NCBI GenBank assembly: GCA_031425655.1
Contig: JANPJS010000080.1
Span: 1-18,165, forward strand
From: Abditibacteriaceae bacterium
GTDB lineage: Bacteria; Armatimonadota; Abditibacteriia; Abditibacteriales; Abditibacteriaceae
Direction of reading: 5' to 3'
DNA: 18,165 bases
The first letter of the stretch is position 1, and each line of letters opens with the position of its first letter. The notes under the pieces were generated by a model. The model saw only the letters and a program-made list of their open reading frames with translations. It made no database searches and had not been told where the DNA came from. Positions 1 to 15,300 of the stretch are shown here, one piece after another. The translations under genes and the position numbers were made by a program.

Positions 1-87
1 TCTGAGCTTGCGAAGAATCTATTTTGTGATCCGCTTGGTAAGAGCAATGGGGGCGCGCAATAGATTCTTCGCAAGCTCAGAATGACA
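1..87. repeat. Palindromic REP/MITE-like element, left end probably cut by the window edge
   Basis: Perfect 23-bp inverted repeat: 1-23 TCTGAGCTTGCGAAGAATCTATT against 59-81 AATAGATTCTTCGCAAGCTCAGA. The right arm continues ATGACA, giving a ...CAGAATGACA end that I recall from dispersed TGTCATTCTGAG-type intergenic palindromes. Confidence 0.8.
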
Positions 88-155
88 GCGCTTCTGTAGT
101 CCCGTGATTCGCAGGCTAATGGATGCGCCTAACACATCCCACTGCGTAAGGTGAG

Positions 156-245
156 AAAGGATTTCGCAAAGCCCGCAAAAGAAATAAAGATGTCTAAAAA
201 GGCTTTGTGTGTCTTTGTGAAATCCTTTGTGTCCTTTGTGTTTAA
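156..245. repeat. ACACAAAG/CTTTGTGT-type palindromic repeat, copy 1 (outer left arm missing or degenerate)
   Basis: 156-171 AAAGGATTTCGCAAAG pairs with 213-228 CTTTGTGAAATCCTTT (15/16, one G.U). CTTTGTG units recur across 203-240. Segment 225-245 is the exact reverse complement of 11189-11209. Confidence 0.75.
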
Positions 246-254
246 TCGAAAGTT

Positions 255-1025
255 ATGACTTGGAATTTAGCGGAACAAACGTATAAAACGGTGCGCGCCG
301 AACACTACGAAGTCGCGGTTTTGGCGATTGGCGCGTGCGAGCCGCACAATTTTCATTTGCCTTATGGAACCGACACTTTGCAGGCCGACGGCATCGCCAA
401 TCGCGTTTGTCAAAGCGCATCGGCGCAGGGCGCAAAAGTCGTCAAGCTGCCGACGATTCCTTACGGCGTGCAAAGCAATATGCGCGCGTTGCCGCTTGCC
501 ATCAACGTTTATCCGTCCACGTTTTTCGCGCTATTGAAAGACATCGTAGATTCGCTGGAAAATTCGGGCATTCGCAAACTGCTAATTCTCAACGGGCACG
601 GCGGCAACGATTTTCTCAAGCCTTTCGTGCGCGAAATGATGGGCAAAAGCGCGGTTTTTATTGCGGTAAGCGATTGGTGGAAAGTCGGCGCCGACGTTTA
701 CGACGAAGTGTTCGATGTCCGCGACGACCACGCCGGCGAAATGGAAACGAGTGTGATTTTGGCGCTGCGGCCCGATTTGGTAGATTTGGAAAACGCCTCC
801 GACGGCGCGACAATTCCAACGCGCTTCCCCGCGATCAATAAAGGCTACGTCAGCATTTCGCGCGAATGGCATTTGCTGACCGAAAGCACCGGCACCGCCG
901 ATCCGCGCGCGGCGACAGCGGAAAAAGGCGAAGCGTATCTGCAAATTGTCGTTGAACGTCTGGCGCGCTTCGTGACGGAATTATCGGCGGCGAAAATGGA
1001 TGGCAGCTTTCCCTTTACGTTTTAA
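255..1025 (+). CDS. Creatininase / creatinine amidohydrolase family protein (256 aa)
   Basis: Family motifs are present in order: GACEPHNFHLPYGTD (ExHxxHLPxGTD), NGHGGN, DHAGEMETS and the C-terminal ADPRAATAEKGE. The true substrate cannot be inferred from sequence. Confidence 0.93.
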   Translation: MTWNLAEQTYKTVRAEHYEVAVLAIGACEPHNFHLPYGTDTLQADGIANRVCQSASAQGAKVVKLPTIPYGVQSNMRALPLAINVYPSTFFALLKDIVDSLENSGIRKLLILNGHGGNDFLKPFVREMMGKSAVFIAVSDWWKVGADVYDEVFDVRDDHAGEMETSVILALRPDLVDLENASDGATIPTRFPAINKGYVSISREWHLLTESTGTADPRAATAEKGEAYLQIVVERLARFVTELSAAKMDGSFPFTF

Positions 1026-1133
1026 TTCTTGCTTTGTTAATCCATAACTTGGAAATTCTGTGAGTTTTGAGTGTCGGAGACGTTTTAAGGCCGCGCTTTA
1101 TCTTGACTTTAATAACATGATGCCACTACGACC

Positions 1134-1142
1134 TGTTATAAT
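1134..1142 (+). promoter_or_regulatory. Putative extended -10 sigma70 promoter (TGnTATAAT) for the defence-like operon
   Basis: TGTTATAAT at 1134-1142 is a perfect extended -10 element. It lies in an AT-rich spacer 27 nt upstream of the ATG at 1170. There is no -35 at canonical spacing (TTGACT at 1103-1108 is 28 nt away). Confidence 0.6.
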
Positions 1143-1169
1143 TTGGAAAATTCTTCGTTTTGGTGCTTC

Positions 1170-4100
1170 ATGGAAATCGCGGAATCGCTGGAAGAACCTC
1201 TCTTGCCGCAGCAGGACGCGCCATCGCCGCATGACCGGCGTTTGGGCGAGTGGCTGGGCCATTTAGACGATGAGATTTTCGCGTTGCGCGAAGCCGCTCA
1301 GCACATCGCTGCGCTCTTGAATGCCTCCGGCTCGCTCGATGCCGAATCGCTATCGCACGCTCAGAACGCTTTATCGGTGAAACTCGGCGCTGTCGCTCAC
1401 AGCGCGCGATGCGGCGAGCAATTGGCCGCAACCGCCTTGCAAAACAACGGTTTGCCGCCGCTGATTGACGAAAAATTGCGAATCGAGGCGCGACATTTGG
1501 GCGCGCAGCCGTTTTTAGCAAAAGCCTCGACACGCGATCCGCGACTGGCGCCGCTTTTCGCGCCCTTTGGCGAAATCAGCGATGCCGCCGTGCTGTTTCA
1601 ACAGCTCGGCGAGTGCATTGATGATCCGGCGCGCGAAGACTGGCCTCCGCATCTGCGCGCACTACGCCGCCAAATCGAAATTCTCGCTTCGCGCTCTCTT
1701 GAAGACGAATTGGCGGCGCTGATTTTTCCGATATGGGGCCGGCATCCAACCATCGGCGACACCGGGCGCGCGATGGTGGCTCGCTATTTAGGCTGGGATG
1801 GACTGGGCGGCGCGACCTTGGAAAAAGCCGGCGACTTAGGCGGTGTCAGCCGCGCGCGCGTTTCTCAACTCACAGTGTCGCTCGAAGAAGAATGGCAAGA
1901 TTGCACGCTTTATGCGCCGGCTTTGGATCGCGCGCTGCGTTATGTCCGCGAAGTTTTACCAGCGCCCGCCGCAGAAGTGGAAAACCAATTGGCGCTGCAC
2001 GGTGTTGCGCTGCGGCCTTTTCGAGTCGAAGGACTGCTGCAAGCCGCACGAGTTTTGAAGCGCGATTGCCCGTGGCGAATCATTAAGTTGCCGCTCGGCG
2101 ATGCAGAAAACCAGACGGCGCGCTGGGTTTGCGCCGCGCAGCACGCCGAAATGCTGCCGAATTTTTTGAATAATGCGCGCCGTCTGGCCCGCAAAAACGG
2201 CTGCGTGCGATTGGCCGAACTCCATGACGAAGCGGACGCTGCATCCGGCGAAGTTACGTCCGGCGAAGCCGTTACGCGCGCCGTAAATGCGGCCTTGCTG
2301 CGCGTTTTAGTGGCGATGCCGGGCTTTGTCTGGCTCGATGCGCGCGAAAGCTGTTTTTGGTTTGGCCCCACCGCCGATAATCGTCTGGTGCGCGCCGCGC
2401 AAAAACTGCTGGCCGTCGCGGGGCAATTGGAAACGCGCCGCCTGCACGAATTGCTGCTGCGCGCCGCGCAAAACGATGCGCGCGAAGTGGCGCCGCCCCA
2501 CCTTGAGATTTTTGAACGCATCTCCGCCGTTTTGCCGGGCGCCCGCTTGGAAAACGGCGTGTTACACGCGACGGATTTGCCGCCGCTTGGCGAACTGTGC
2601 GGCAGCTTCGAGCAAACCCTGATTGCGATTTTGCGTGAACACGGCCCGGTTTTATCGCGCCAGCGATTGCAGCAGTTCAGCGCGGCGCGCGGCCTCAATC
2701 TCAGCACGCTCGATGTGCAAATTGCCACTTCGATTTTAGTTGAGCGCCCGGCGCGCGGCTGGGTGGCTCTGCTCGGCACGGACGTAGATTTAAGCGCGCT
2801 CGATGGTGCGAATCAGGAGAGCGCCGCTGCCGCGCGCGAACGCTGGGCCGAAAATGCGCAAAGTGTCTGGCAAAACGGCGGGCAAACCGAGGAGCCGGGC
2901 CAAAACGCACCACCGGCAACGGGCGATGATTTGTTTGCGGGAATAGACGCGCAGAGCGGCGAGGCTCTTGAAAAAGCGGTGGCGGCGCTTTTAGCGCGAG
3001 CGCGGCACCATGATTTGCTGCCGAAAGACGGCGGCAATGCCCTGTCTAAAGCGCGTTGGTCGCTGGCTGAAGTGCAGGCATCGCCCGCCGATTACCTGTG
3101 GTTGCAGGAATGGATGCGCCATGCGCGCCCACAGCAGGTGCGGCATTGGCTGCGCGGCGACAATTTGCAGCGTCAGGCGGCCATTGGCCTTGTGCTTTTG
3201 CTGTTTTGCTGCGAAACCGCGCGCCGCGAAGCGCGCGGCGATGCGCTGTGGCCGGTTTTGGCGCGCTGGCCGATGCGCGCCGATACGCGCGCGGTTTTGT
3301 GGGCCAACAATCAGCCGTCGCGCGTGTTCAAAGACGCGCTCGAAGCCGCCGCGCAAACCTTTCATTTGCGCCACGTTTTCGGCGTGACCGGCTTGCAAAA
3401 CTGGTTCGACAGCATTCGTTTGCAGTTCGGATTTTCGCTGCCCGGACTGCGCGCTCGTCTGGGCGACTGGCTGGCCGGTGCCGGCTGGCCGCACGCCGTG
3501 GAAACTCTGCTCGAAGGCCCGCAGAAAAGCGCGAGCTTCGTCGAAATGTGGGAGAATCTGCGGCTTTTTCGGCGCAATCATATCAGCGAAGAGCGTTTGC
3601 GCGCCGCGCTGCGCGACAATCCGTGGGTGCTCTGCGAATGGCACGACGAATTGCTGGAATCGCTGCGCGTTTTGCGCGATACCGAGCGCGCCGCCAGCGC
3701 GCCGCTTGCGGGCGACAAACTGCCGTCGCGTGCCGAAAGCGAAGCGCCCGCTTCGTTTGTCAAAGGCCCGTTTCTTGAATGGGACAGCGCCCTGCCGCAC
3801 TGGCGTTTTGAAATCGCCGCGCTGGATGATTTCGACTTGCCCGGCGCGCATTATCAAATCGTGGAGCGCGGCCAGATCGTCGCCGATTTGTGGCGGCGTG
3901 CCGATGGCGGCTTTGACGGGCCAGAGCAGTTTTATTTGCCTCTGGCGCCGCAAAATCAACTGCTTTTGCGCGATGCCGCCGACAACACGGTCGCGCACAG
4001 TGTTTTGCTCGAAGGCTGGCAAAGCGACGAAGACGTAGCGGCCTTTTCGCTGCCCGATGGCCGCGCGTTTGAAGCGTGGCGCCGCCCCTTGGAAACGCGG

Positions 4101-5873
4101 CGCGACTTTGCTTTGCTGACCGCCGCCGATTTGCGCGTGGAGCCGGCGCCTGATGATTCGCTGCCGCTGCCGGGTGGACGCTTAGTTTTGCACCGCTTAC
4201 CGGCAGGACGCGATGCAACGCCGCGCGTCTGGCTCGAAGACGAGGTTTTGTGGCCGCCCGCCGATGGAAATCAGGCTGCGCGTGCCCAAACGCCGAGTGC
4301 CGGCGTTTTCGCTTTTTTCGAGCCGGGGGCCGCGATTCGGCCCGGCCAGAGCGCGCCGCTTTTGTTGCGCCACAACGCCGCCACGCGCGTGCTTTATCTG
4401 CGACAGGACGGCGGCCCGGTGGATTTTGAAAACGGCGAAACTTTGACGCACGCCCGCCCCAATATCCCAGAAAGCGGGCCGCATCCATGGAAAATCGTGC
4501 TGCGCGCCGGATTGGTCGTGACGCAGGCCGATGACAGCCAGACGCGGCGCACTGTTCGCCTCGAAATCGCCTTGCCGCAGGGCGGCGCCTTTCATTTCAG
4601 CGGCGGCGTATGGAAGCCGCTGAGCAACGGGATTTTGCAAACCCGCACGGCGAGCGCCGTCCGGTTTTTGATTCATCCGCCCGCCACCGATGCGCCCGAA
4701 TCGTGGCGCGATTGGGCTTTGATGGAAGGCGATAGTTTTGTGCGCCGCTTGTCGCCCGTAGCCGCGCCGCTGAAGGATTTGAGCGGTTGGGGCGAGCCTC
4801 TTACGCTGCGGCGCGGGCCGTATAATGCTCTCGAAGCCGACCTGCCAATTTCCTCTGCCGTAATTGATCAGGGCTTGCTGAAAAAAGCCTCGTTTGAGAG
4901 CGAAGGCGATGCGAGGCGCATCGAAATTTATCTGGCGCACCCGATTGAGCCGGATGCCGCTCATCGTTTGCTGTGGTGGGACGGCGAAACCGTGCAGGCT
5001 TTGCCGGTCGAGGCCGACGCCGAAGATAAGGCTCTGTGGCGTGCGCCGTTTCCGCAGAACACGACGCGCCTGCTGGCATTGGCCTTGTCTTATGAGGGCG
5101 CGCGGTTGGGCGCGCTGTGGAACGATAAATGGAGCCGCGTTCTGCTTGCCGGCAAGCAGAACGCGGCGCAGGCGCGCGAAACGGCGGCGCTCTTGCGCTG
5201 GTTCAAACTGCCGTTGCTGGACGCGGCGCATTTGCCATCCGTGCGCGATTGGGCCGCGCGTTTTCCCGGCGCGTTTTTGGAAGTCTGGCTGCGTGAGGCC
5301 GCGCCGATTTCTCTGAAAAATCTGCCGTTCTGCCTTGTGCCGGGCGAGGAAAACGATATGGCGCGGGTGATTGCCGCTGTTTTCGCCGAATGGAAGCCAA
5401 ACCCCGCCGAAGCCGCTGCGGTTGCCGCGCTTTTGGCGCCCGATGCGCCTTCTCCTGCCGAGGCGTTGGGGCAATCGCTGGCCGATTTGCGCCGCGCTGC
5501 GCCAGCTTTGATGGCATCCGTAGCTGCCGCGTGGCTCCAAGAGCCGCCCGAAGCTCTGAGTTTTTCGCAGCGTTGCGCGTTGCTGGATGAATGGAAAAAT
5601 GCTCTGGGCGCGGCGCCGGGCGATGAAAATTCGCAATTGGCCGAATGCGCCCTTGCCATGCGCTGCGATGAGTTTTTTGTGCGCGGCGTGCTCGATAACG
5701 CGGTCAGGGTCTGGCAGGGCCAGCCGCACGCGACGGCGTGTGGCGCGCGGAATTTGGCTTTGGCGGTTTCGCTTCAGCCGTTTCGTTTGCTGTTGGCGCG
5801 GCGCTTGTTGCGGGAAATCGCCCTCCAATTGGACGCCGCACAGCGCAAAGCCGAGCGCGCCGCGTGGCGTTGA
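1170..5873 (+). CDS. Large protein (1567 aa): N-terminal sigma70-region-4-like HTH and winged-helix-like region fused to a DruH/STY4851-like region; probable defence-helicase partner
   Basis: One long ORF. ATG 1170 is preferred over TTG 1143, which directly abuts the -10 element. HTH motif RAMVARYLGWDGLGGATLEKAGDLGGVSRARVSQL at 1767-1871. Polar linker at about 2790-2980. Then WSLAEVQASPADYLWL...LLLFCCETARRE...LWPVL...HLRHVFG...NWFDSIRLQFGF (3057-3440), which resembles my recollection of the DruH/STY4851 N-terminal domain. The ORF ends 37 nt before the DUF1998 helicase gene. The CDS is secure; the DruH assignment is inference. Confidence 0.75.
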   Translation: MEIAESLEEPLLPQQDAPSPHDRRLGEWLGHLDDEIFALREAAQHIAALLNASGSLDAESLSHAQNALSVKLGAVAHSARCGEQLAATALQNNGLPPLIDEKLRIEARHLGAQPFLAKASTRDPRLAPLFAPFGEISDAAVLFQQLGECIDDPAREDWPPHLRALRRQIEILASRSLEDELAALIFPIWGRHPTIGDTGRAMVARYLGWDGLGGATLEKAGDLGGVSRARVSQLTVSLEEEWQDCTLYAPALDRALRYVREVLPAPAAEVENQLALHGVALRPFRVEGLLQAARVLKRDCPWRIIKLPLGDAENQTARWVCAAQHAEMLPNFLNNARRLARKNGCVRLAELHDEADAASGEVTSGEAVTRAVNAALLRVLVAMPGFVWLDARESCFWFGPTADNRLVRAAQKLLAVAGQLETRRLHELLLRAAQNDAREVAPPHLEIFERISAVLPGARLENGVLHATDLPPLGELCGSFEQTLIAILREHGPVLSRQRLQQFSAARGLNLSTLDVQIATSILVERPARGWVALLGTDVDLSALDGANQESAAAARERWAENAQSVWQNGGQTEEPGQNAPPATGDDLFAGIDAQSGEALEKAVAALLARARHHDLLPKDGGNALSKARWSLAEVQASPADYLWLQEWMRHARPQQVRHWLRGDNLQRQAAIGLVLLLFCCETARREARGDALWPVLARWPMRADTRAVLWANNQPSRVFKDALEAAAQTFHLRHVFGVTGLQNWFDSIRLQFGFSLPGLRARLGDWLAGAGWPHAVETLLEGPQKSASFVEMWENLRLFRRNHISEERLRAALRDNPWVLCEWHDELLESLRVLRDTERAASAPLAGDKLPSRAESEAPASFVKGPFLEWDSALPHWRFEIAALDDFDLPGAHYQIVERGQIVADLWRRADGGFDGPEQFYLPLAPQNQLLLRDAADNTVAHSVLLEGWQSDEDVAAFSLPDGRAFEAWRRPLETRRDFALLTAADLRVEPAPDDSLPLPGGRLVLHRLPAGRDATPRVWLEDEVLWPPADGNQAARAQTPSAGVFAFFEPGAAIRPGQSAPLLLRHNAATRVLYLRQDGGPVDFENGETLTHARPNIPESGPHPWKIVLRAGLVVTQADDSQTRRTVRLEIALPQGGAFHFSGGVWKPLSNGILQTRTASAVRFLIHPPATDAPESWRDWALMEGDSFVRRLSPVAAPLKDLSGWGEPLTLRRGPYNALEADLPISSAVIDQGLLKKASFESEGDARRIEIYLAHPIEPDAAHRLLWWDGETVQALPVEADAEDKALWRAPFPQNTTRLLALALSYEGARLGALWNDKWSRVLLAGKQNAAQARETAALLRWFKLPLLDAAHLPSVRDWAARFPGAFLEVWLREAAPISLKNLPFCLVPGEENDMARVIAAVFAEWKPNPAEAAAVAALLAPDAPSPAEALGQSLADLRRAAPALMASVAAAWLQEPPEALSFSQRCALLDEWKNALGAAPGDENSQLAECALAMRCDEFFVRGVLDNAVRVWQGQPHATACGARNLALAVSLQPFRLLLARRLLREIALQLDAAQRKAERAAWR

Positions 5874-5910
5874 AACGCCGTGCAGTTTGCTTCTTAAAAC
5901 AGGAAATTTC

Positions 5911-8900
5911 ATGTCCCAACTCGATGCGATAGCGTTGTCCGCCGCTGTTCAGAGGCGCCTGGTGGATTTTGCCGGCGAAGCGCACTACACGCGCAACACG
6001 CACTTAGCCGCGATTTGTCGCCGTTTGTGGAGCGGCGCGCCCGCCGAAGGCGGATTAGTCAGCGATTTGTGGGTTGAAGGCGCGTTTCCGGCGCAAAGCG
6101 GCGACGAAACGCTGCAAACGCTGGCCGCGCGCGGGCTTTTCGACGCTTCGCTGGCCGCGCATTTAGATGCGCGCGGCGCGGTTCCCAAGGGACGTGCGCT
6201 CTACACGCATCAAAGCGCCGCGATTATTCAGGCGCGCCACACGCCAAACCATCACAAGCCGGCCTTAGTCGTAACGGCGGGAACCGGCGCCGGCAAAACC
6301 GAAAGTTTTCTGCTGCCGGTTTTGGATGCGCTGTGGAGCGAGCCGCCCAGCGAAAAAGCAGGCGTGCGCTGCCTGATTTTGTATCCGATGAACGCCTTAG
6401 TCAACGATCAGGTTGACCGGCTTTACGGTTGGATGCGCGGCCAGAATCGGCTGAGTTTGTTTCATTTCACCAGCGAAACGCCCGAAGACAAACGCGCCGC
6501 TGACCGCGACGGCGTGCCGGAATGGGACGCCTGCCGCTTCCGCACCCGCAAAGAGGCCCGCGCCGGTGTGCCGGATATTCTTATCACCAACTATTCGATG
6601 CTCGAATATATGCTGTGCCGTCCGCAGGACACGCCGTTTTTCGGGCCAAACCTCAGCGCCGTAGTGTTGGACGAAGCGCATCTTTACACCGGGACTTTGG
6701 CGGCGGAAATGACGCTGCTTTTGCGGCGTTTATTGCGGCGCTGCGGCAAGGAAGCGCACGAAATCCTGACCCTTGCGACTTCGGCGACCATCGGCAGCGG
6801 CGCGCCCGGCGAACTCGAAAATTTCGCGGCCACGCTGTTTTCGCGGCGTGCCTCACAGGTGCAGGTGATTCGCGGCGAACGGGCGCGCCCGCTTCTCGAA
6901 AGCGCGCAGGCGCCGTCGCAAACGCCGGTTGCGGCCAACCTTGCCGCTCTGCAATGGCTTCAGGCGCCGACGCTGCAAATTGCCGCCGACGGCGCCACGC
7001 ATTTGGCCGAAAATCGCGCCGAATGCGCGCGATTGGCGCATCAACTGCCGCTTTTAGTGGCGCCCAGCGTCGTCGAAGCGGCTTTGGCGGCTTGCGAAAA
7101 TCGCCCGGCTGTTTTGCTGCAAAAAACGCTGTGCGCCGCGCCGCTCACGCACGCTCTGGAAAACGCTTTGTGGAACGAGCCGCGCCGCGCTTTGGGTGAT
7201 TTAGCGCGCGAGATTTGGCCGGAGCAAGCGGAAAACGAAGGCCAAAGCGCGATTCGCGCGACTCTTGCGCTGTTGCAAATGGGCGCGGCGGCACGCGGCG
7301 CGGCGGGCGATTATCCGCTGCTGCCGCATCGCATTCATTTGCTGGCCCGCGCGCCCGAAGGCCTGACTTTGTGCCTGAACGCCGATTGCACGGCGCCCGC
7401 CGACTTGAAAATGCCGAGTTTTGGCGCTGTCGCGGCGGGCGGCGGTGGGCGTTGCGCCGTTTGCGCGCACGCCACGCTGTCGCTGTTTCACTGCGCCAAT
7501 TGCGGCGAATGGGCGCTTGGCGCCAACGACGACGGTCTACGCCTGATTCCGGCCTATCGAGAGCAAGGCGGCGAAGGCGAAACGTTGTTTTTGCAGGCGC
7601 CCGGCGCGTCGTCGCTGGCGCCGCTGGTTGTGGATGCGCGCGATGCGCGGCGTTTGGCATGGGGCACGCCGGGGCTTGTGTTCGAACGCATCAGCGATTG
7701 TCCGTGTTGCGGCGCGGGCCGGGACAGTTGGCAGCCGTTCGCATCGGGCGCGGCGTTGCCGATGTCCATCGTGGCCGAAACCGCGCTCGCCGAACTGCCG
7801 CCGTATCCCGCCGCGCATCACGCGCATTTGCCGGCGCAGGGTCGGCGCCTTTTGGCTTTCAGCGACAGCCGAGGCGAAGCGGCGCGTTTGGGGCCGCGCC
7901 TGACGCGACAGCACGAAACACAGTTGGGCCGCGCCGCGACTCTGCGCTGTCTGGAAAATTCGCCGGCTTCGGATGAGGAAACTCTGGAATTCTGGCGTGG
8001 CGAAGTGCGAACGCTGGAAGCGCGCCTGAGCCATGCGCCGCCGTCGCCGGCTTTGCGCCAGACCTTGCAAAACCAACTCGACGAGGCGCGTTTGCAACTG
8101 CAAGCGCAGCACGGCGGCGGCTCGATGCGCGATTGGGCGAGGCTTCTCGAAAGCGAACCGCTGTTGCATCAGTTTTTCGATTTCGACGGGGCCGGCGAGC
8201 ATCAAGCCGCGACGTGGACGCCGCAAAAATGGGAGGAAAATTTCGCGCGCGTCAGCCGTCACGCTTTGCTGCTTTTGGCCGGGGAACTGAGTGTTGGCAC
8301 GCGGCGGCGGATGTCGCTGGAAAGCCTCGGTCTGGCCGAAGTGACTTATCCCGGATTGGAAAACGCCGTCGCACCCGCCGCGCTTTTGGGCACGCTGCCC
8401 GATGCTGCTTTGCGCGACGGATTGAGCGCAGTTTGGCCGGACTTCTTGGCCGCGCTTTGCGATACGCTGCGCTTGGACGGCGTGTGGACTTTGGGCAGCG
8501 CCGAAGAAGACATGGCATATCCGGCGGGGCGGCAGCTTTTGGGTTATTGGGTGGTGAAAAATCAGCCGCCCGCCCCTTATTTCGCGCGTTTTACCGGCGA
8601 TTCGCTGCGCCAAAGGCGCCGCCGCTTTGCTTTCAACGTGCTGCAAAATGTGGCGCCTTGCGACAACGCCGAGGCACTCTCGGAAATCGTTTTAAACGCC
8701 GCCTTCGATCAACTTTTGAGCAGCGCCGAAACACAGTGGCCGTGGCTGGAAGGCGGCGAACGCTCTGCGGCTTTGAAGAGCACGCCCGGCCTGCGCCTGC
8801 GTTTTCCCGACCTCGGTTTGCGCCGTCCGCAGCGGCTTTTTCGCTGTCCGACGACCGGCCATGTCTGGCCGCGCAGCGTGGCCGGCTGCGCGCCCGAAGC

Positions 8901-11169
8901 CGGCTGCCGCCATTTGCAGCCGATTGACGCTGTCGCACTAAACGACGACCCGCGCCGCGCCCGCTTGCGCCGCGAATTGGCCGAATCGCCGGTTTTCGCG
9001 CTCGGATTGTGGGCCGAAGAGCATTCGGCGCAGCTTGCGCCTGCGGAAAATCGGCGCTTGCAGGACTTGTTCAAAGCTGGCGTTCGCAACGTATTATCAT
9101 CAACGACCACGCTGGAACTCGGCATTGACATCGGCGGGCTGAGCGCGGTTCTGATGGGCAACGTGCCGCCCGGCAAAGCCAATTATCTGCAACGCGCCGG
9201 ACGCGCCGGTCGCCGCGCCGACGGCTCATCGGTTGTGATAACGTTCGCGCGTCCCAACCCGTTCGACCGCGCGGTTTTCGCGCGGTTCGGCGATTACATG
9301 AAGCGCGATTTGCGGCGCCCTGTGGTGTTTCTCGACCGCGCCCGCGTGGTGCGGCGTCATGCTCATGCGCTGCTGCTCGGCGAATTCTTTCGCCAGCTTT
9401 ACGGCCCCGCTGCCGAAACCGGCGCCATGCGCGCTTTTGGCAATATGGGCGAATTTTGCGGCGTGCCTTTGCCGCCTAAATGGGACAGAGGCGCCAAGCC
9501 AGCCCTCGATGCACCCGCAGCGCCGGTTCACGAGCAGTTCGTCAATTTCCTGCGCGCCTTGCAAAATCATCACGATACGGCGCTGCACGAATCGCTGCGC
9601 GCGGTTTTGCGCGGCACCAAGCTGCAAAACGAACCCGACGACTGGACGCGCTTTTTCGGCGACACCATCGCGCAGTTTGAAGACGCGCTCGCCACTTGGC
9701 GAAGCGACTACGACGAGCTTTTGGCGGCGTGGCAGGAAATCGAAAACGCGCCCGCGCAGGCCAATGCGCTGCGTTATCAAATGGCGGCGCTGTGGGAAAT
9801 GACGGTCATTGAGGCTTTCGCCGACCGCCAGTTTTTGCCGCGCTACGGCTTTCCCATCGGCGTGCAAAAGCTGCGCGTGATTACTTTTGACGACGACAAA
9901 AAACGCTTGCGCGAAGAAGACCAGTTTCGGCTTGAACGGCCCGGCTTGCTGGCTTTGCGCGAATACGTGCCCGGCTCGCAGCTTTTGGCCGGCGGGCGCC
10001 TGATTACTTCGCGCGGCTTGCTCAAGCACTGGACAGGCGCTGCGCTGGACAATTATTTGGGTGTGCAGGGCCGTTATACAAAATGCCTGAATGGGCATTT
10101 TTTCTATGCGCTCAGCGGCGAACTCGGCGCGTGCCCGGTGTGCGGGGAAGCGGCAGGCGCGGGGCGCCATTTATTGTTGCCGCGCCACGGATTTTCCAGC
10201 GCCGCGTGGGATCCGCCACGCCACAGCACCGATGTCGAGCGGGTCGGCAGCGTCGAGCAGGCGACGATTACTTTCAGCCGCAGCCACAGCAGCGAAATGA
10301 TCGAAGACGATTTTGCCGAAATTTCCGGCCTGCGCGCTCGATACCGCGAAGACGGCGAACTGCTGGTTTACAACGACGGCGAATTCAATTGCGGCTTCGC
10401 CATCTGCACCAAATGCGGCTACGCCGACAGCGAAAAACGCATGGCGCAGGGCGCTATGCACTTGCCTTCCACTTTCGCCGTCCACGCGCGGCTAACTTCC
10501 AAGCATCGCCGCGACAAGTGCTGGAACAGTGGTGAGACTTTTGTTTTGCGAAACCGCACTTTAGCCGCCAGCGAAACCACCGACGCGCTGATGCTGGATT
10601 TTTCGGCGAGTCTTGGCGATTATGCCGATTCCGCCGCGCTGTTGGAAACTTTGGGCCGCGCTCTGCAAGTGGCGGGCGCCCGCTGCCTCGAATTGGATGG
10701 CCGCGAAATCAGCGTTCTCACGGTTCCGGCGGGTGTGGCCGGGCAAAGTTTGGGCGTGGTGCTGCTGGACAACGTGCCGGGCGGCGCCGGCCATGTGCGC
10801 GAACTGCTGGGCGTGGGCCGTTTGTGGCTCGAAGCCGCGCGCGAGGCGCTTTTCGTGGACGCGGCGCATCACGCGCGCTGCGAAACCGCCTGCATTGACT
10901 GCCTACTCACCTTCGACGCGCAAACCGCCATGAGTCAGGGTTTGCTGTCGCGCCGCTTCGCGCACGACGTTTTAGAAGCCTTGCTCGGCAGCGCGCCTTT
11001 GCCTCTCGCGCCGCACGCTGCGAGAGCGCGGCGCACCATCGTAAGCGGCGCCGAGCCATCGCTTTTCGAGCCGGAAAGTCCGCCGGCTGATCCTGTGGCG
11101 CCTGTGGCCGCGCTTTCGGTTGCGGAGCGCCGTGCCCGCGCCGCGCGCCGCCGCCCCAACTCGCAGTAG
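5911..11169 (+). CDS. druE: DEAD/DEAH-box SF2 helicase with C-terminal DUF1998 domain, Druantia DruE-like (1752 aa)
   Basis: ATG 5911 follows AGGA (5901-5904) and avoids overlap with the upstream gene. Motifs: Q-motif LYTHQ, Walker A AGTGAGKTES (about 6277-6306), Ia LYPMNALVNDQ, Ib TNYSMLEYML, II LDEAH (6667-6681), III TSAT, IV-like LLAFSDSR, EEHSAQ, V STTTLELGIDIG, VI QRAGRAGRR (about 9190-9216), FLPRYGFP. DUF1998 signature DNVPGGAGHV...CETACIDCLL (10768-10908). The helicase and DUF1998 calls are secure; the druE symbol is inferred from size, architecture and partner. Confidence 0.85.
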   Translation: MSQLDAIALSAAVQRRLVDFAGEAHYTRNTHLAAICRRLWSGAPAEGGLVSDLWVEGAFPAQSGDETLQTLAARGLFDASLAAHLDARGAVPKGRALYTHQSAAIIQARHTPNHHKPALVVTAGTGAGKTESFLLPVLDALWSEPPSEKAGVRCLILYPMNALVNDQVDRLYGWMRGQNRLSLFHFTSETPEDKRAADRDGVPEWDACRFRTRKEARAGVPDILITNYSMLEYMLCRPQDTPFFGPNLSAVVLDEAHLYTGTLAAEMTLLLRRLLRRCGKEAHEILTLATSATIGSGAPGELENFAATLFSRRASQVQVIRGERARPLLESAQAPSQTPVAANLAALQWLQAPTLQIAADGATHLAENRAECARLAHQLPLLVAPSVVEAALAACENRPAVLLQKTLCAAPLTHALENALWNEPRRALGDLAREIWPEQAENEGQSAIRATLALLQMGAAARGAAGDYPLLPHRIHLLARAPEGLTLCLNADCTAPADLKMPSFGAVAAGGGGRCAVCAHATLSLFHCANCGEWALGANDDGLRLIPAYREQGGEGETLFLQAPGASSLAPLVVDARDARRLAWGTPGLVFERISDCPCCGAGRDSWQPFASGAALPMSIVAETALAELPPYPAAHHAHLPAQGRRLLAFSDSRGEAARLGPRLTRQHETQLGRAATLRCLENSPASDEETLEFWRGEVRTLEARLSHAPPSPALRQTLQNQLDEARLQLQAQHGGGSMRDWARLLESEPLLHQFFDFDGAGEHQAATWTPQKWEENFARVSRHALLLLAGELSVGTRRRMSLESLGLAEVTYPGLENAVAPAALLGTLPDAALRDGLSAVWPDFLAALCDTLRLDGVWTLGSAEEDMAYPAGRQLLGYWVVKNQPPAPYFARFTGDSLRQRRRRFAFNVLQNVAPCDNAEALSEIVLNAAFDQLLSSAETQWPWLEGGERSAALKSTPGLRLRFPDLGLRRPQRLFRCPTTGHVWPRSVAGCAPEAGCRHLQPIDAVALNDDPRRARLRRELAESPVFALGLWAEEHSAQLAPAENRRLQDLFKAGVRNVLSSTTTLELGIDIGGLSAVLMGNVPPGKANYLQRAGRAGRRADGSSVVITFARPNPFDRAVFARFGDYMKRDLRRPVVFLDRARVVRRHAHALLLGEFFRQLYGPAAETGAMRAFGNMGEFCGVPLPPKWDRGAKPALDAPAAPVHEQFVNFLRALQNHHDTALHESLRAVLRGTKLQNEPDDWTRFFGDTIAQFEDALATWRSDYDELLAAWQEIENAPAQANALRYQMAALWEMTVIEAFADRQFLPRYGFPIGVQKLRVITFDDDKKRLREEDQFRLERPGLLALREYVPGSQLLAGGRLITSRGLLKHWTGAALDNYLGVQGRYTKCLNGHFFYALSGELGACPVCGEAAGAGRHLLLPRHGFSSAAWDPPRHSTDVERVGSVEQATITFSRSHSSEMIEDDFAEISGLRARYREDGELLVYNDGEFNCGFAICTKCGYADSEKRMAQGAMHLPSTFAVHARLTSKHRRDKCWNSGETFVLRNRTLAASETTDALMLDFSASLGDYADSAALLETLGRALQVAGARCLELDGREISVLTVPAGVAGQSLGVVLLDNVPGGAGHVRELLGVGRLWLEAAREALFVDAAHHARCETACIDCLLTFDAQTAMSQGLLSRRFAHDVLEALLGSAPLPLAPHAARARRTIVSGAEPSLFEPESPPADPVAPVAALSVAERRARAARRRPNSQ

Positions 11170-11188
11170 CCAGCCTTTTCAAAGACGG

Positions 11189-11287
11189 TTAAACACAAAG
11201 GACACAAAGTTCGCACACAGACACAGAGATTCCTCTTTTGCCGTTCTTTGTGTTCTTTTGTCCAACCTTTGTGTCTTTTGTGTTGAA
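11189..11287. repeat. ACACAAAG/CTTTGTGT-type palindromic repeat, copy 2 (about 99 bp)
   Basis: Left arm 11189-11209 TTAAACACAAAGGACACAAAG pairs with right arm 11267-11287 CTTTGTGTCTTTTGTGTTGAA (19/21). Internal degenerate ACACAGA and CTTTGTGT units are present. Confidence 0.8.
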
Positions 11288-11305
11288 AATGAAGAAGGAA
11301 CAATC

Positions 11306-12076
11306 ATGCAATTTATCGAAAATGAAGTGAAAGAAATCGGGCCGGGCGTATGGATTCGCGTGGCCATTGACAACATCGCGTGGGCCGATTTGGGCGATGG
11401 CGTTGCCGTTATTGACGCGCTCGAAGACCCGGCGCAGGCCGACGTGGTGCGAAATCTCATTAAGCAAACCACGGGGCGCGATTTGAAATGGGTGGTGACC
11501 ACGCACTGGGACACCGATCACATCGCGTGCAATCCGCAGTGGCGGCGCGAAGGCGCGCCGGTCATCGCGCATCAATCGTGCGCCGATTCCGCCGCCGATT
11601 GGGAAGGCCGCCCCGATATTTCGTATGCCGACAACGCGGTTTTGCGCGGCGCCACCGAACGCATCGAAATGCAATGGCTCGGCGGCACGCACACGCCGTG
11701 GGACACCATTTTGTATTTTCCCGGCGCCCGCGTGCTGCATATCGCCGATTTATTCGGCTGGGGCTTGATTCCGTGCAAACCGACGCCGGAAAAAGTGGCG
11801 CGCTTGTGGGAAGTGCTGAATCGCGTGGTCGAATTCGAGGCCGACGCGGTGATTTGCGGCCACGGCCCGGTCACGACTTTGGCGCATATTCGCCGCTTTA
11901 TGGCCTATTTCGACGAGCTTTTAAAACAAGTGCCGCCGCTTGTGGCCGAGGGCAAATCGCTGGACGAAATCGAAGCCGCTGTGCCGCCACCCGATGACAT
12001 GAGCGATTGGTGGCGCTTCGTGGCTTGGAAGCACAAAAAGAATCTGGAAATGATCGCGGCGGATTACAGCGCTTAA
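11306..12076 (+). CDS. Metallo-beta-lactamase-fold hydrolase (cyclase/glyoxalase II-like), 256 aa
   Basis: ATG 11306 follows the SD-like GAAGGA (11294-11299). Motifs: VAVID, VVTTHWDTDH (HxHxDH variant), VIAH, GGTHTPWD, LHIADL, ICGHG. The longer ORF-track start (11120) runs through the helicase 3' end and the repeat. Confidence 0.9.
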   Translation: MQFIENEVKEIGPGVWIRVAIDNIAWADLGDGVAVIDALEDPAQADVVRNLIKQTTGRDLKWVVTTHWDTDHIACNPQWRREGAPVIAHQSCADSAADWEGRPDISYADNAVLRGATERIEMQWLGGTHTPWDTILYFPGARVLHIADLFGWGLIPCKPTPEKVARLWEVLNRVVEFEADAVICGHGPVTTLAHIRRFMAYFDELLKQVPPLVAEGKSLDEIEAAVPPPDDMSDWWRFVAWKHKKNLEMIAADYSA

Positions 12077-12099
12077 CAAGTTGCAGGCTACATAGAAAA

Positions 12100-12176
12100 G
12101 AGGCTGCAGTCAGACCCCACCTGCCCGAAGGGCGCCCGCCCCTTAGCAAGGGGGCAGGGGGTCTGACTGTAGCCTC
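12100..12176. repeat. Branched hairpin (REP-like) element between convergent genes
   Basis: Outer 19-bp stem: GAGGCTGCAGTCAGACCCC (12100-12118) with GGGGTCTGACTGTAGCCTC (12158-12176), one G.U. It encloses two small hairpins, GCCCGAAGGGC (12123-12133) and CCCCTTAGCAAGGGG (12139-12153). Confidence 0.75.
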
Positions 12177-12255
12177 GCCGGAACTCGCATTGGTCGGGAC
12201 GACGGCGATAATCTGCGTGGCCGAAACGATGGAGTCTGCGCGCATCAGGACAATA

Positions 12256-12294
12256 AAAAGCGCACCGACTGAGAAACTCAGTCGGTGCGCTTTT
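12256..12294. terminator. Intrinsic terminator, probably bidirectional
   Basis: Perfect 18-bp stem AAAAGCGCACCGACTGAG-aaa-CTCAGTCGGTGCGCTTTT with A/T tracts on both sides. It sits 13 nt past the stop codon of the minus-strand gene and between convergent genes. Confidence 0.88.
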
Positions 12295-12307
12295 GGGTTT
12301 GCAATGG

Positions 12308-15300
12308 CTACTGGCTTGGCTCGTCGTCCTCGAAAAGCAGCGCCGCTGCGTCGTCGTTGCGAATGGTGCCGATACCCAGGCCATCGGCGAGGAAGGCGAA
12401 AGTCGGTTTGCTCAGGGCGACTTTGTAAGTCTCGTTCGGCTCAACTGTCGAGTCGCCTTTGACCAAAATTGTGATGGTTTTGCTGGTTTCGCCCGGTGCG
12501 AATGTGAGAGTGCCCGAAGCCGCCACGTAATCGCTTGCCACGGCGGTGCTGTCGGCGGTCGTCCAATCTACCGTGACGGTGTCAGTCGAAGCCGCCGAAA
12601 GCGTCACGGTGAAGATTTGGGATGTCGTGCCGCCGTCGCCTTCGTTAATGGTGAGCGCGTTGGCGATGGTAATGCCTGGCCCATCGTCGTTGTTGATCTG
12701 GCCCACACCACGATTGTCGGCAATCGTCGCATTCGTCGGCGTCTTGAGATCGAAGAAGAAGGTTTCATTGAGTTCGACCGCGCTGTCGCCGATGAACTGA
12801 ATCGTCACGCGCTTGAGAGTCTCGCCCGGCGCAAAGGTCAGCTTGCCACTTTTAGCTGTGTAATCGCTGCCGGCGAGGGCCGGATTATTGATGCCATTGG
12901 CCGTTTGATAATTAACCGTCACGCTTTGCGTGCTGGCCGTAGTGAGCGTGATGTCGAAGGTGACCGAACCGGGCGAGGGTGCGCTGCCTTCGGGAAGTGA
13001 ACGCGGGTTATTGACGGCGATTCTGATGTCATCGTCGGTAATGGTGCCCACGCCCTGCGCGTCGGCAATGGTTGCGCCGTTGGGATTGCTCAGGTTTACG
13101 ACGAAGGTTTCGTTGGGTTCGCCTGCTGTGTCGCCAATGATTGGCACAACGATAGTCGCGCTGAGTTGTCCTGCCGGGATGGTTACCGTGCCGCCGGCGG
13201 CAGTGTAATCGCTGGCCGCCGTCGCCGTGCCGTTAGCCGTGGCATAGGTCACTGTGACAGATTGCGTGCTGGTCTTGGACAAGCTCACTGTGAACGTGAG
13301 GTTGCTACTGCCGCTATTGCCCTCGGCTTTTGATACGTCGTTAATGGAAATCGTGGGAAGCACAGTGAAGGTGCCGGTGCTGGTGGCAGTGCCGCCGGGC
13401 GTGGTGACGCTGATTTTGCCGGTGGTCGCGTTGGTAGGCACCGCTACGGTAATCTGCACTGAGGAATTAACGGTAAACGCCGGCGCGCTGACGCCGTTGA
13501 ATTTCACTCCCGTCGCGTTGCTGAAATTGACGCCCTCAATGACGACACTGGTGCCCGCGCCGCCGCTGGTCGGGCTGAAACTGAAAATCACCGGCGCGGG
13601 CACCACGGTGTAGCTATTGGTGCTGGTGGCGGTTCCGCCCGGTGTCGTGACGCTAATTTTGCCGGTTGTCGCACCGGCAGGCACCGTTACGGTGATTTGC
13701 GTGGGCGAATTGACTACGAAATCGGCGCTGGTCTGGTTGATGCGCACATCGGTCGCGCCGGTGAAGTTGGTGCCGGTGATGACCACGCTGTCGCCGACCT
13801 TGCCGCTGGCCGGCGCAAAACTGGTAATCGTCGGCGCCACAAGAGGCACTGTGAAGTTGCTGGCGCTGATGGCTGTGCCGTTCGGCGTGGTGACGCTGAT
13901 TGGGCCGGTGGTCGCGCCTGCCGGCACCGTCGCGGTTATGGTCGTGGCAGAGTTGACGGTGAAAGTGGCCGTAGTGCCGTTGAATTTCACCGAATTGGCG
14001 CCGGTGAAGTTGGTGCCGGTAATCGTCACCGTGGTGCCGGCAGCGCCGCTCGTCGGCGTGAAACTGGTGATTTTCGGAAAAGCGGTGCTGGTCGCCGTAA
14101 GATCAACGCTGGTGGCGGTGTAACTGACGGCGAAACCGGGAGCGCTGACCGTGGCAAAAGTGCTGCTGCCGCGTGCGCCGGAAGCGAAAGTCACCACCGA
14201 AAAGACCGCGCCGCTTGCCGGTTGGAACGGGCTAATCAGACTGGCGTTGAGCCGGCCTCCGAGCGCGACGGGCGTGTTCAGTCGCAGTTGATCGAAGCCA
14301 CTGCCCGCCGTTGCGCCGCCAATCTGGATGTTGAGAATTCCCGTAGAAGTCTGGGTAAAAGGAACGAAAATGCCCGGAGTGCTGGATGCTCCCAGATTCA
14401 GCGTTTTTTTGTTGTTGAACTGCTGACCTGTGCCGCCGTTGAAAGCTGCCCAGCCTGCGTTAGGCATCGCCGTAAAGGTGCCGTTGTTGTTGAAAACACT
14501 GTCGGTCAGCGCCGTAATGTTGCCGGCGAGCCAGTTCGTGGTGCCGTTAGCGTTGATGGTGCCGCTGAGAGCGCCGCCGGATAATGTTAGGCCGCCGGTG
14601 ATGGTGCCTCCGCCCGCCACGGTCGTGAGCGTGCCGCCGAACAGTTCGAGTTTGCCGCCGCTTTGTCCACCGACGATGCTGCCGCTGATGCTCACCGTCG
14701 CCTGAATCTGGCTGCTGCCCGCGCCGGTGAACTTAGCCCCACCGGTCAGGATGTGCGTATTGCCATTGAAGCGCACGAATGCACCGCTGCTGCAATTGAA
14801 GGTGCCGGTGCTGGTGCCGTCTGAGATGCCCAAAATGCCCGCAAGCACGTTCACTGTGCCGCTGTTCTTGAAGTTGGCGCCGCCGCCGAACTGAGAATAT
14901 TCCGTGGTCGTGCCGCTGGCGTTGAGGGTGCCGATGTTGTTGAACTGCTGACCCGTTCCGCCGTTGAAGGCCGCCCATATCGCGTTGGCCGTCGTCGTAA
15001 ACGTGCCGTTGTTGTTGAAAATTGAGTCCGTGAACACCGTTATGTTGCCGCCGAGCCAGTTCGTGGTGCCGTTGGCGTTGATAGTGCCGGACAGCCCGCC
15101 GCCGGATAATGTTAGGCCGCCAGTGATGGTGCCACCGCCTGCTACGGTCGTGAGAGTGCCGCCGAACAGTTCGAGTTTGCCGCCGCTTTGTCCACCGACG
15201 ATGCTTCCACTGATACTCACCGTCGCCTGAATCTGGCTGCTGCCCGCGCCGGTGAACTTAGCGCCGCCGGTCAAGGTGTGCGTATTGCCATTGAAGCGCA

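Follow-up and report, generated by a model that had tools for sequence, protein, structure and literature searches.

A probable two-gene Druantia type III module with a PLD-less DruE-type helicase and a divergent DruH-like partner in an Abditibacteriaceae bacterium

A large gene pair related to Druantia type III

The window analyzed here is an 18,165-nucleotide stretch of DNA from an Abditibacteriaceae bacterium (Armatimonadota) that comprises one whole contig (JANPJS010000080.1 of assembly GCA_031425655.1). It contains two very large co-oriented genes separated by 37 nt (5874-5910), as an earlier note made from the sequence alone had described. Gene 1 encodes a divergent DruH-like partner protein preceded by an N-terminal extension, while gene 2 encodes a DruE-type helicase (Table 1). 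The analyses presented below lead us to conclude with good confidence that the pair forms a two-gene Druantia type III module, in which a DruE without PLD domains would act together with a diverged, likely DruH-equivalent partner that bears a predicted DNA-binding front end, and whose role is likely anti-phage. The locus is a real, intact, and likely functional Druantia III variant.

Table 1. Features of the gene pair and its upstream motif in the window (nucleotide positions; residues are numbered within each protein)
Feature	Position	Strand	Details
Extended -10 promoter-like motif TGnTATAAT	1134-1142	+	TGTTATAAT, read directly in the sequence
Gene 1, divergent DruH-like partner with ~580-aa N-terminal extension	1170-5873	+	1567 aa; stop 5871-5873
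Sigma70-region-4-like helix-turn-helix	1755-1895	+	Residues ~196-242; weak own match, module members, and model helices
Predicted tandem winged-helix array	1917-2777	+	Residues ~250-536; AlphaFold2, mean pLDDT 85
Helical N-terminal domain of DruH-like core	2964-3695	+	Residues ~599-842; AlphaFold2 model
Run of Ig-like beta-sandwich domains	3759-5120	+	Residues ~864-1317; AlphaFold2 model
Helical C-terminal domain of DruH-like core	5130-5867	+	Residues ~1321-1566; AlphaFold2 model
Gene 2, DruE-type SF2 helicase without PLD domains	5911-11169	+	1752 aa; AGGA before ATG 5911; stop 11167-11169
Walker A GTGAGKT	6280-6300	+	Residues 124-130; K129 and T130 invariant in 105 rows
Motif II DEAH	6670-6681	+	Residues 254-257; invariant in 105 rows
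MZB/DUF1998 zinc-binding domain	10660-10905	+	Residues 1584-1665; PF09369, 25.9 bits vs cut-off 24.2

Gene 2 encodes a DruE-type helicase without a nuclease tail

Among the PADLOC models, DruE3 gave the best match to gene 2 (725.6, 536.8, and 429.1 bits), followed by DruE1 (489), DruE2 (347), and DruE4 (304), with DpdJ (92 bits) and DrmA (58 bits) at the lower end. Similarity to YprA/MrfA was likewise weak (E 3e-16) compared with a DruE-sized chain (E 2e-84), so that gene 2 bears no close resemblance to MrfA, DrmA, or DpdJ. Pfam recognized DEAD, Helicase_C, and MZB/DUF1998 domains in the protein. The DEAH helicase with cysteine-rich parts that the earlier note had recognized proved intact, with helicase motifs (GTGAGKT at residue 124, DEAH at 254, TSAT at 290, TTTLELGIDIG at 1065, and QRAGRAGR at 1094) that are invariant across a 105-row alignment built from 104 of the 119 listed homologs. 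The chain holds 35 cysteines and six CxxC pairs, and at 26% identity to E. coli DruE its zinc cysteines at 488-531, 597/600, 1392-1411, 1499-1537, and 1657-1664 match canonical DruE positions; in the last of these clusters, C1657, C1661, and C1664 align with C1683, C1687, and C1690 of E. coli DruE.

The two helicases part ways after the MZB domain, where gene 2 retains a tail of 89 residues, while four canonical III-A proteins have 388-415 and E. coli DruE has the longest of these tails, at 415. Neither PLD domains nor an HxK-type motif was found in this C-terminal tail. A similarly compact end, with 29-178 residues after MZB, characterizes all 40 of the 40 aligned members of the clade. In a separate observation, an Azotobacter plasmid system (L183:6372-11489) combines a canonical DruH with a PLD-less DruE of 1705 aa, so that loss of PLD also took place inside canonical III-A.

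The helicase groups with canonical III-A

In a FastTree phylogeny of 53 helicases over 1418 columns, which drew on the intact reading frames of 35 of the 80 loci carrying related helicases together with references, the window's helicase and 39 relatives joined canonical III-A at a support of 1.0, and the III-B proteins (represented by two references) and the ARMADA references fell outside. Together with the DruE3 match, this grouping bears out the type III-like assignment made in the earlier note.

A published catalog points in the same direction. Table S1 of Bell et al. (10.1101/2025.09.15.676423 = PMC12458937; here and below, statements on cited papers refer to the accessible parts of each source) attaches the label 'Druantia Type III-A-like' to the contigs of at least 10 of the 80 relatives (L003, L033, L036, L039, L045, L049, L052, L060, L061, and L079), and none was found labeled III-B. 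This match was made by contig accession for a subset of the 80, and L060 carries a second YprA-type helicase. Two Roseomonas plasmid records bear the same III-A-like label (PMC12458937), while, among the table rows searched, the accessions of three further relatives were not listed for the contig concerned and the window's own protein was absent. By its sequence, the gene 2 clade thus appears to be the sister of canonical III-A and to belong to the III-A-like branch of Bell et al. An assignment to III-B was considered and dropped, as the relatives are labeled III-A-like and both III-B references lie outside the clade in the tree.

The core of gene 1 is a likely DruH homolog

Residues ~588-1551 of gene 1 can be aligned with proteins, most of them 940-1000 aa long, that are encoded directly upstream of the helicase. 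Members of this family were found at that position in 78 of the 80 helicase loci by BLAST and in 79 by profile, the single miss having no upstream DNA, and the gene pair whose conservation the earlier note had asked about is therefore a stable one. No third conserved gene accompanies it, as no other gene family occurs in more than 10 of the 80 loci. The family is large: in a set of 50%-identity representatives, HMMER detected 605 members at E<=0.001. Word-seeded homolog searches with gene 1 returned only the protein itself or one relative of its extension, a miss that reflects limited sensitivity given the 605 relatives found by HMMER. The whole protein had no match in Pfam, PADLOC, or NCBIfam, and sequence searches of the PDB with gene 1 or with a 98-row profile yielded nothing meaningful, even though the library holds a DruH chain (PDB 9tud).

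Structural modeling of the core (residues 581-1567) with AlphaFold2 was based on an alignment of 98 rows, which took in 97 of 149 listed representatives selected by length, and produced a confident model (pLDDT 90.9; pTM 0.89). The model revealed a helical domain, a run of immunoglobulin (Ig)-like domains, and a second helical domain, an order that corresponds to the N-domain, six Ig-like domains, and C-domain reported for DruH structures (10.64898/2026.05.12.722862; 10.64898/2026.05.13.724313). Within the N-domain, the motif E682-x-x-R685-R686 is 97-99% conserved in the 98 rows. Foldseek and VIA-align matched the core to tandem Ig/FN3 proteins (best Z 8.0, root-mean-square deviation 2.9, 84 aligned); DruH was not among the rows listed in these fold searches, and the presence of 9tud in the fold libraries is uncertain. 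An Atlas search of the core gave no usable match.

Profile comparison was carried out against a canonical DruH profile of six sequences, the number being small because PDLC00049 matched only 1 of 401 sampled genomes. The N-domain profile matched it with E 0.0011 over 64 columns at a score of 30.8, in register and including the E-x-x-R-R motif, compared with control scores of 9.2-15.6 in 20 shuffles and 17.0 for the reversed profile. The Ig region gave a weak match to canonical DruH (E 0.012 vs 0.31 reversed). Taken as a whole, this sequence evidence is weak, though specific. Sequence comparison and modeling together suggest that the gene 1 core is a likely DruH homolog.

Several results weigh against a Druantia III assignment. 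The PADLOC DruH models matched none of the window's partner and 30 relatives, the partner core measures about 950-990 aa compared with 1100-1155 aa in canonical DruH, its C-domain displayed no profile similarity to canonical DruH (E 0.34), and a long branch of 0.81 separates the clade from canonical III-A. Each of these would fit an alternative in which the pair represents an unnamed YprA-family defense type of its own, with a DruE-related helicase and a partner that is no DruH homolog and resembles DruH in domain order only. In addition, the N-domain match to canonical DruH carries a probability of only 20%, a profile comparison over the whole length, made against E. coli DruH alone, reached 0.2%, and in the helicase tree, which contained no type I/II, DrmA, or MrfA sequence, the node of the window's own clade has a support of 0.499. 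The DruH models, however, matched 5 of 5 canonical DruH controls and missed the partner of one III-B locus as well, so that their failure does not separate the types. Gene order, position, and three-part predicted architecture are the same as for DruH, and the in-register N-domain motif scored above all shuffled controls alongside the weak Ig-region match. We consider a separate type improbable and retain the reading of the core as the DruH equivalent of a type III module. The window's partner profile had no match to a Clostridium III-B partner.

The N-terminal extension carries a predicted DNA-binding module

The relatives of gene 1 align only from residue ~588, which confirms that the extension of ~580 aa is real and agrees with the earlier description of a compact helicase beside a partner some 600 aa longer than its DruH-like part. 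As a feature of a subtype, the extension did not hold up, since 56 of the 70 partners with a visible N-terminus lack an extension of at least 150 aa and 14 have one; partners of at least 1400 aa number 14 among the 149 listed representatives.

Residues ~170-540 of the extension, a stretch of ~370 residues, align with a module found in other proteins, to which they are 24-30% identical. Sigma70_r4 was matched by 14 of 33 aligned module members (E<=0.01) and RNA_pol_A_CTD by 6 of 33, and of the Atlas neighbors of the extension, 82-85% carry Sigma70_r4 and some RNA_pol_A_CTD or HARE-HTH. The model of the extension comprises a low-confidence helical hairpin, a helix-turn-helix (HTH), and several alpha/beta units. 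Its best Foldseek rows were winged-helix arrays (UFL1, E 1.6e-3; SelB, E 0.07), none of them reaching E<=0.001; single winged-helix units gave matches at Z about 8, and a wide fold search was dominated by the low-confidence hairpin.

Of 80 metagenome loci with the module, 7 have it fused to a partner core ahead of DruE (near-identical in four or five cases and split in one) and 73 have it without a core match (14 of them cut by a contig end); in the latter it is usually a protein of 340-480 aa. The partner extensions belong to unrelated families, namely three groups bearing sigma4 that have nothing but the HTH in common, one multi-alpha C-terminal domain (alpha-CTD) protein, two groups without Pfam matches, and duplications of the N-domain. 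The two groups without clear Pfam matches (L033:1543-7950, L034:3562-7947, P0214, P0233, P0240, and P0255) span 500-1300 aa and are unrelated to the sigma4 modules, and the duplications are seen in partners of ~1220 aa with a tandem-duplicated helical N-domain (L001:4313-7984, L009:4296-7958, and L067:4269-7958).

A core-only tree (63 rows, with every third unfused row) placed the extension groups on separate branches. Two branches at 100/98 (22 rows) set the window's core apart from the other cores bearing this module, and forcing the same-module cores together was rejected by an approximately unbiased (AU) test (p 0.008); the group used in this test was defined after inspection of the 63-row tree, and the residue composition of the window's row is unusual. 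The helicase tree agrees, in that the helicases nearest to the window's have unfused partners. The trees indicate that the extension module joined the window's partner independently; an ancestral fusion followed by many losses may be an alternative, as the root is uncertain.

What the extension does is less firmly indicated. On the basis of its predicted fold, a DNA-binding aid to targeting is a tentative reading that stands somewhat short of an even prospect, and two results speak against it: the window's own Sigma70_r4 match lies below the cut-off (E 0.041), and no alpha-CTD is detectable in its extension, unlike in 6 of the 33 module members. It is also possible, if on the less probable side, that the extension is a passenger, a free HTH/winged-helix gene that became joined when a stop codon was lost and that has no defense role or only that of operon autoregulation. 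The coreless state of the module in most metagenome loci, the many partners without extension, the degenerate sigma4 signature, the undetected alpha-CTD, and a low-complexity linker between extension and core would all accord with such a passenger; against it, the reading frame is intact across 1567 codons, the same module was fused to the core at least two times, and two further unrelated sigma4-bearing families and one multi-alpha-CTD extension occupy the same position. That a single type of domain was captured repeatedly suggests selection, although autoregulation could account for this as well. Promoter- or transcription-specific sensing is unlikely, and we give similarly limited credence to a role other than targeting aid, passenger, or autoregulator. 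The broadest proposal is that the DruH N-terminus is an exchangeable sensor slot in a PLD-less sister lineage of III-A, into which no fewer than six unrelated extensions were captured independently. Four of these are based on promoter-reading domains of the RNA-polymerase type (sigma region 4 or alpha-CTD), and the extensions would aim the helicase at phage promoter DNA or at transcription complexes rather than at exposed single-stranded DNA (ssDNA) alone; we hold this proposal to be doubtful.

Beside these fusions, a recurring set of genes (L109:5970-10398, L110:5824-10443, L155, and L136) encodes a small protein, a protein of ~547 aa with an ATPase-like motif recognized by eye, and a protein of ~735 aa with the sigma4/winged-helix module. 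The three-gene set had no PADLOC match and is possibly an unnamed defense or restriction-like operon.

Genomic setting, acquisition, and defense context

A TGnTATAAT motif stands directly upstream of gene 1, in agreement with the extended -10 element pointed out before. As the genome of 5.98 Mb contains 48 copies on both strands, this position is unlikely to arise by chance, and we regard the site as a putative promoter, although no spaced -35 element was found for it and it is absent from the sigma70 scan list. The open frame of gene 1 begins with TTG 1143 immediately after the -10 hexamer, for which reason ATG 1170 is the likelier start. A terminator-like hairpin between the genes (5862-5883) was discounted, as 32 such sites compare with 26.5 +/- 6.0 in shuffles. 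Contigs of run X1 cover positions 1-12300 evenly at a depth of 13-20 except in the first bin, and one X1 record extends from 622 to 5169, thereby crossing the fusion point, and differs in a single letter. These data give no sign of a chimera; run X1 is possibly the source of the assembly and in that case would not be independent evidence.

The operon has a GC content of 63.0%, compared with 56.7 +/- 1.7% for the genome, and none of 439 windows of 10 kb is as high. Of 41 related genomes, 2 carry the helicase, and of 301 genomes from the phylum, 6 carry the partner, the window's own genome being counted; on the basis of these sequence comparisons the operon was likely acquired horizontally. This sporadic occurrence bears on a further alternative, in which the helicase would be a housekeeping repair enzyme of the MrfA/Hrq type and the pair would have no defense role. 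Such a role would suit the non-defense genes that flank the pair, as well as the finding by tblastn that gene 2 is the sole YprA-like helicase detected in its own genome. Set against it are the weak YprA/MrfA similarity beside a 726-bit DruE3 match, the presence in 2 of 41 relatives, the foreign GC, and the fixed partner gene. We find the housekeeping reading very improbable and consider it largely refuted.

The neighbors of the pair in the window, as identified by Pfam, are a creatininase-family protein, a metallo-beta-lactamase-fold protein, a Calx-beta/IPT repeat protein, and a DUF6263 protein, along with a 90-aa open reading frame that has no Pfam match. The Pfam scan of these neighbors revealed no methylase, nuclease, or PLD gene, as the earlier note had stated, and no tRNA lies in the window. 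The window's copy is therefore flanked by housekeeping-type genes outside any defense island, which counts against a defense role. Relatives were encountered on plasmids and as neighbors of ARMADA II-like, PglW, NERD-UvrD, and McrB-like genes.

In five loci (L101:431-2608, L102:1-8150, L107:1-8165, L112:1-2001, and L173:4521-5984; four of them near-identical), a fused partner and PLD-less DruE stand directly behind an ArmD-like UvrD gene, and the preceding helicase of L102 groups with ARMADA II ArmC (support 1.0); the E. coli genes are called ArmC and ArmD here according to operon order. Judged from these sequences, the E. coli-type pairing of ARMADA II with Druantia III recurs in the window's lineage. 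An adjacent NERD-UvrD or UvrD-type gene is present in 10 of the 80 helicase loci (among them L052:13700-15379, L070:13711-15420, L045:3364-5013, L034:13583-15688, and L023:2978-5044) and in the window there is none; the NERD genes beside relatives could supply the missing nuclease. In three loci, DruE is followed by a gene for a protein of ~500 aa without a PADLOC match (L051:9171-10721, L050:7803-9299, and L039:10152-11612).

Outside the gene pair, the Calx-beta/IPT neighbor (12308-16477, reverse strand) is a likely secreted protein of 1389 aa with three near-identical glycine-rich repeats of ~175 aa and IPT/TIG and Calx-beta domains. Similar low-complexity intergenic stretches of ACACAAAG and CTTTGTGT words lie on either side of the region (170-250 and 11180-11290) and are possibly a dispersed repeat of the genome. 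X1 depth is increased at 1-410.

Proposed mechanism and its implications

Reported activities of Druantia III proteins suggest how the pair might act. DruE is reported to act on forks or on ssDNA that is exposed, with unwinding in the 3' to 5' direction (10.64898/2026.05.13.724758; 10.64898/2026.05.13.724313). By its observed motifs, the window's DruE would load on exposed ssDNA or forked phage DNA and unwind it 3' to 5' with ATP. E. coli DruH binds ssDNA at the interface of Ig5 and the C-domain (10.64898/2026.05.12.722862), while in P. aeruginosa DruH the C-domain contacts DruE and the N-domain is reported to be a 3'-5' exonuclease (10.64898/2026.05.13.724313). Given its predicted architecture, the partner core may act like DruH and bind both ssDNA and DruE. 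The sigma4-like HTH and winged-helix array would be an optional, independently acquired add-on that, from its predicted fold, most likely binds double-stranded DNA and may help to target or regulate the system.

The least certain step is clearance of phage DNA in a system lacking PLD, which might proceed through unwinding and stalled phage replication, through the partner N-domain if it is an exonuclease, or through host nucleases. Two reports demonstrate defense by DruE lacking the PLD domains: E. coli DruE 1-1723, from which PLD was removed, restores protection (Himpich et al., 10.64898/2026.05.13.724758), and the M. smegmatis III-B DruE of 1667 aa defends without PLD (PMC13316683). Against this, defense of P. 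aeruginosa against T2 requires the PLD domain (10.64898/2026.05.13.724313), so that defense without PLD may have less strength or may need other genes. Overall, we envisage a helicase-driven block of phage replication, with any cutting coming from the partner or the host.

The 2026 papers disagree on the role of DruH (scaffold, ssDNA sensor, exonuclease, or protein sensor) and on the need for the DruE PLD (10.64898/2026.05.13.724758; 10.64898/2026.05.12.722862; PMC13316683; 10.64898/2026.05.13.724313; 10.64898/2026.05.12.724681). A natural PLD-less lineage with a conserved E-x-x-R-R motif in its partner would offer a direct test of both. As this lineage is large (605 representatives) and invisible to the PADLOC DruH models, Druantia III is probably undercounted outside Proteobacteria. 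If it is true that swapped N-terminal modules change sensing, the lineage would show how a conserved helicase defense is retargeted. The surprise is limited, since systems of this kind have been described before and the organism that carries this copy is uncultured.

Comparison with known systems

PLD-less DruE and the division into III-A and III-B have already been published (10.64898/2026.05.13.724758; PMC12458937; PMC13316683), and the clade is cataloged as III-A-like. The undescribed subtype that the earlier note had considered is thus not new in these respects, while its divergent partner family and variable fusions remain as novel elements. In the accessible Druantia and DruH literature, with bioRxiv-only supplements (DruE phylogenies and neighborhood files) lying outside the search, we found neither the window's partner family nor any fusion of sigma4 or alpha-CTD domains to DruH described, and no literature on HARE-HTH together with sigma and alpha-subunit.

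The window's pair shares with Druantia III-A of E. coli ATCC 8739 and P. aeruginosa the arrangement of two co-oriented genes with the partner first, the RecA1/2, zinc modules, and MZB of DruE, and a predicted partner architecture in the domain order of DruH (PDB 9tud), and, as in E. coli, ARMADA II-like genes stand next to some relatives. It differs in the absence of PLD1/PLD2 across the 40 aligned clade members (29-178 residues after MZB vs about 400) and in a partner that is missed by DruH models, has a core shorter by ~150 aa, and here bears a ~580-aa sigma4/winged-helix extension. Druantia III-B, exemplified by MSMEG_1253/1254 of M. smegmatis (MSMEG_1254 is labeled III-B in Table S1 of Bell et al., PMC12458937), is likewise a two-gene system with a compact DruE mostly without a nuclease domain (PMC12458937; PMC13316683); its two references fall outside the window's clade, the comparison having covered III-B sequences other than those of M. 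smegmatis.

ARMADA I/II and DISARM also possess a YprA-family helicase with DUF1998, but the window has no BrxHII-like helicase or PglX-like methylase and carries helicase and DUF1998 in one chain; the ARMADA references fall outside the Druantia III node, and DISARM DrmA scores 58 bits. The MrfA/Hrq helicases are compact (~750 aa), lineage-wide, and have no large partner, none of which applies to gene 2. Free-standing alpha-CTD/sigma70-r4/winged-helix proteins, whose sigma4 or alpha-CTD part gave weak matches to PglW and MzaA models, align with the extension over ~370 residues at 24-30% identity, whereas the window's copy is fused to a DruH-like core and has no detectable alpha-CTD. Set beside these systems, what appears to be new is a large family of partners that current models miss, together with an N-terminal position that has repeatedly, and here independently, gained HTH-type modules.

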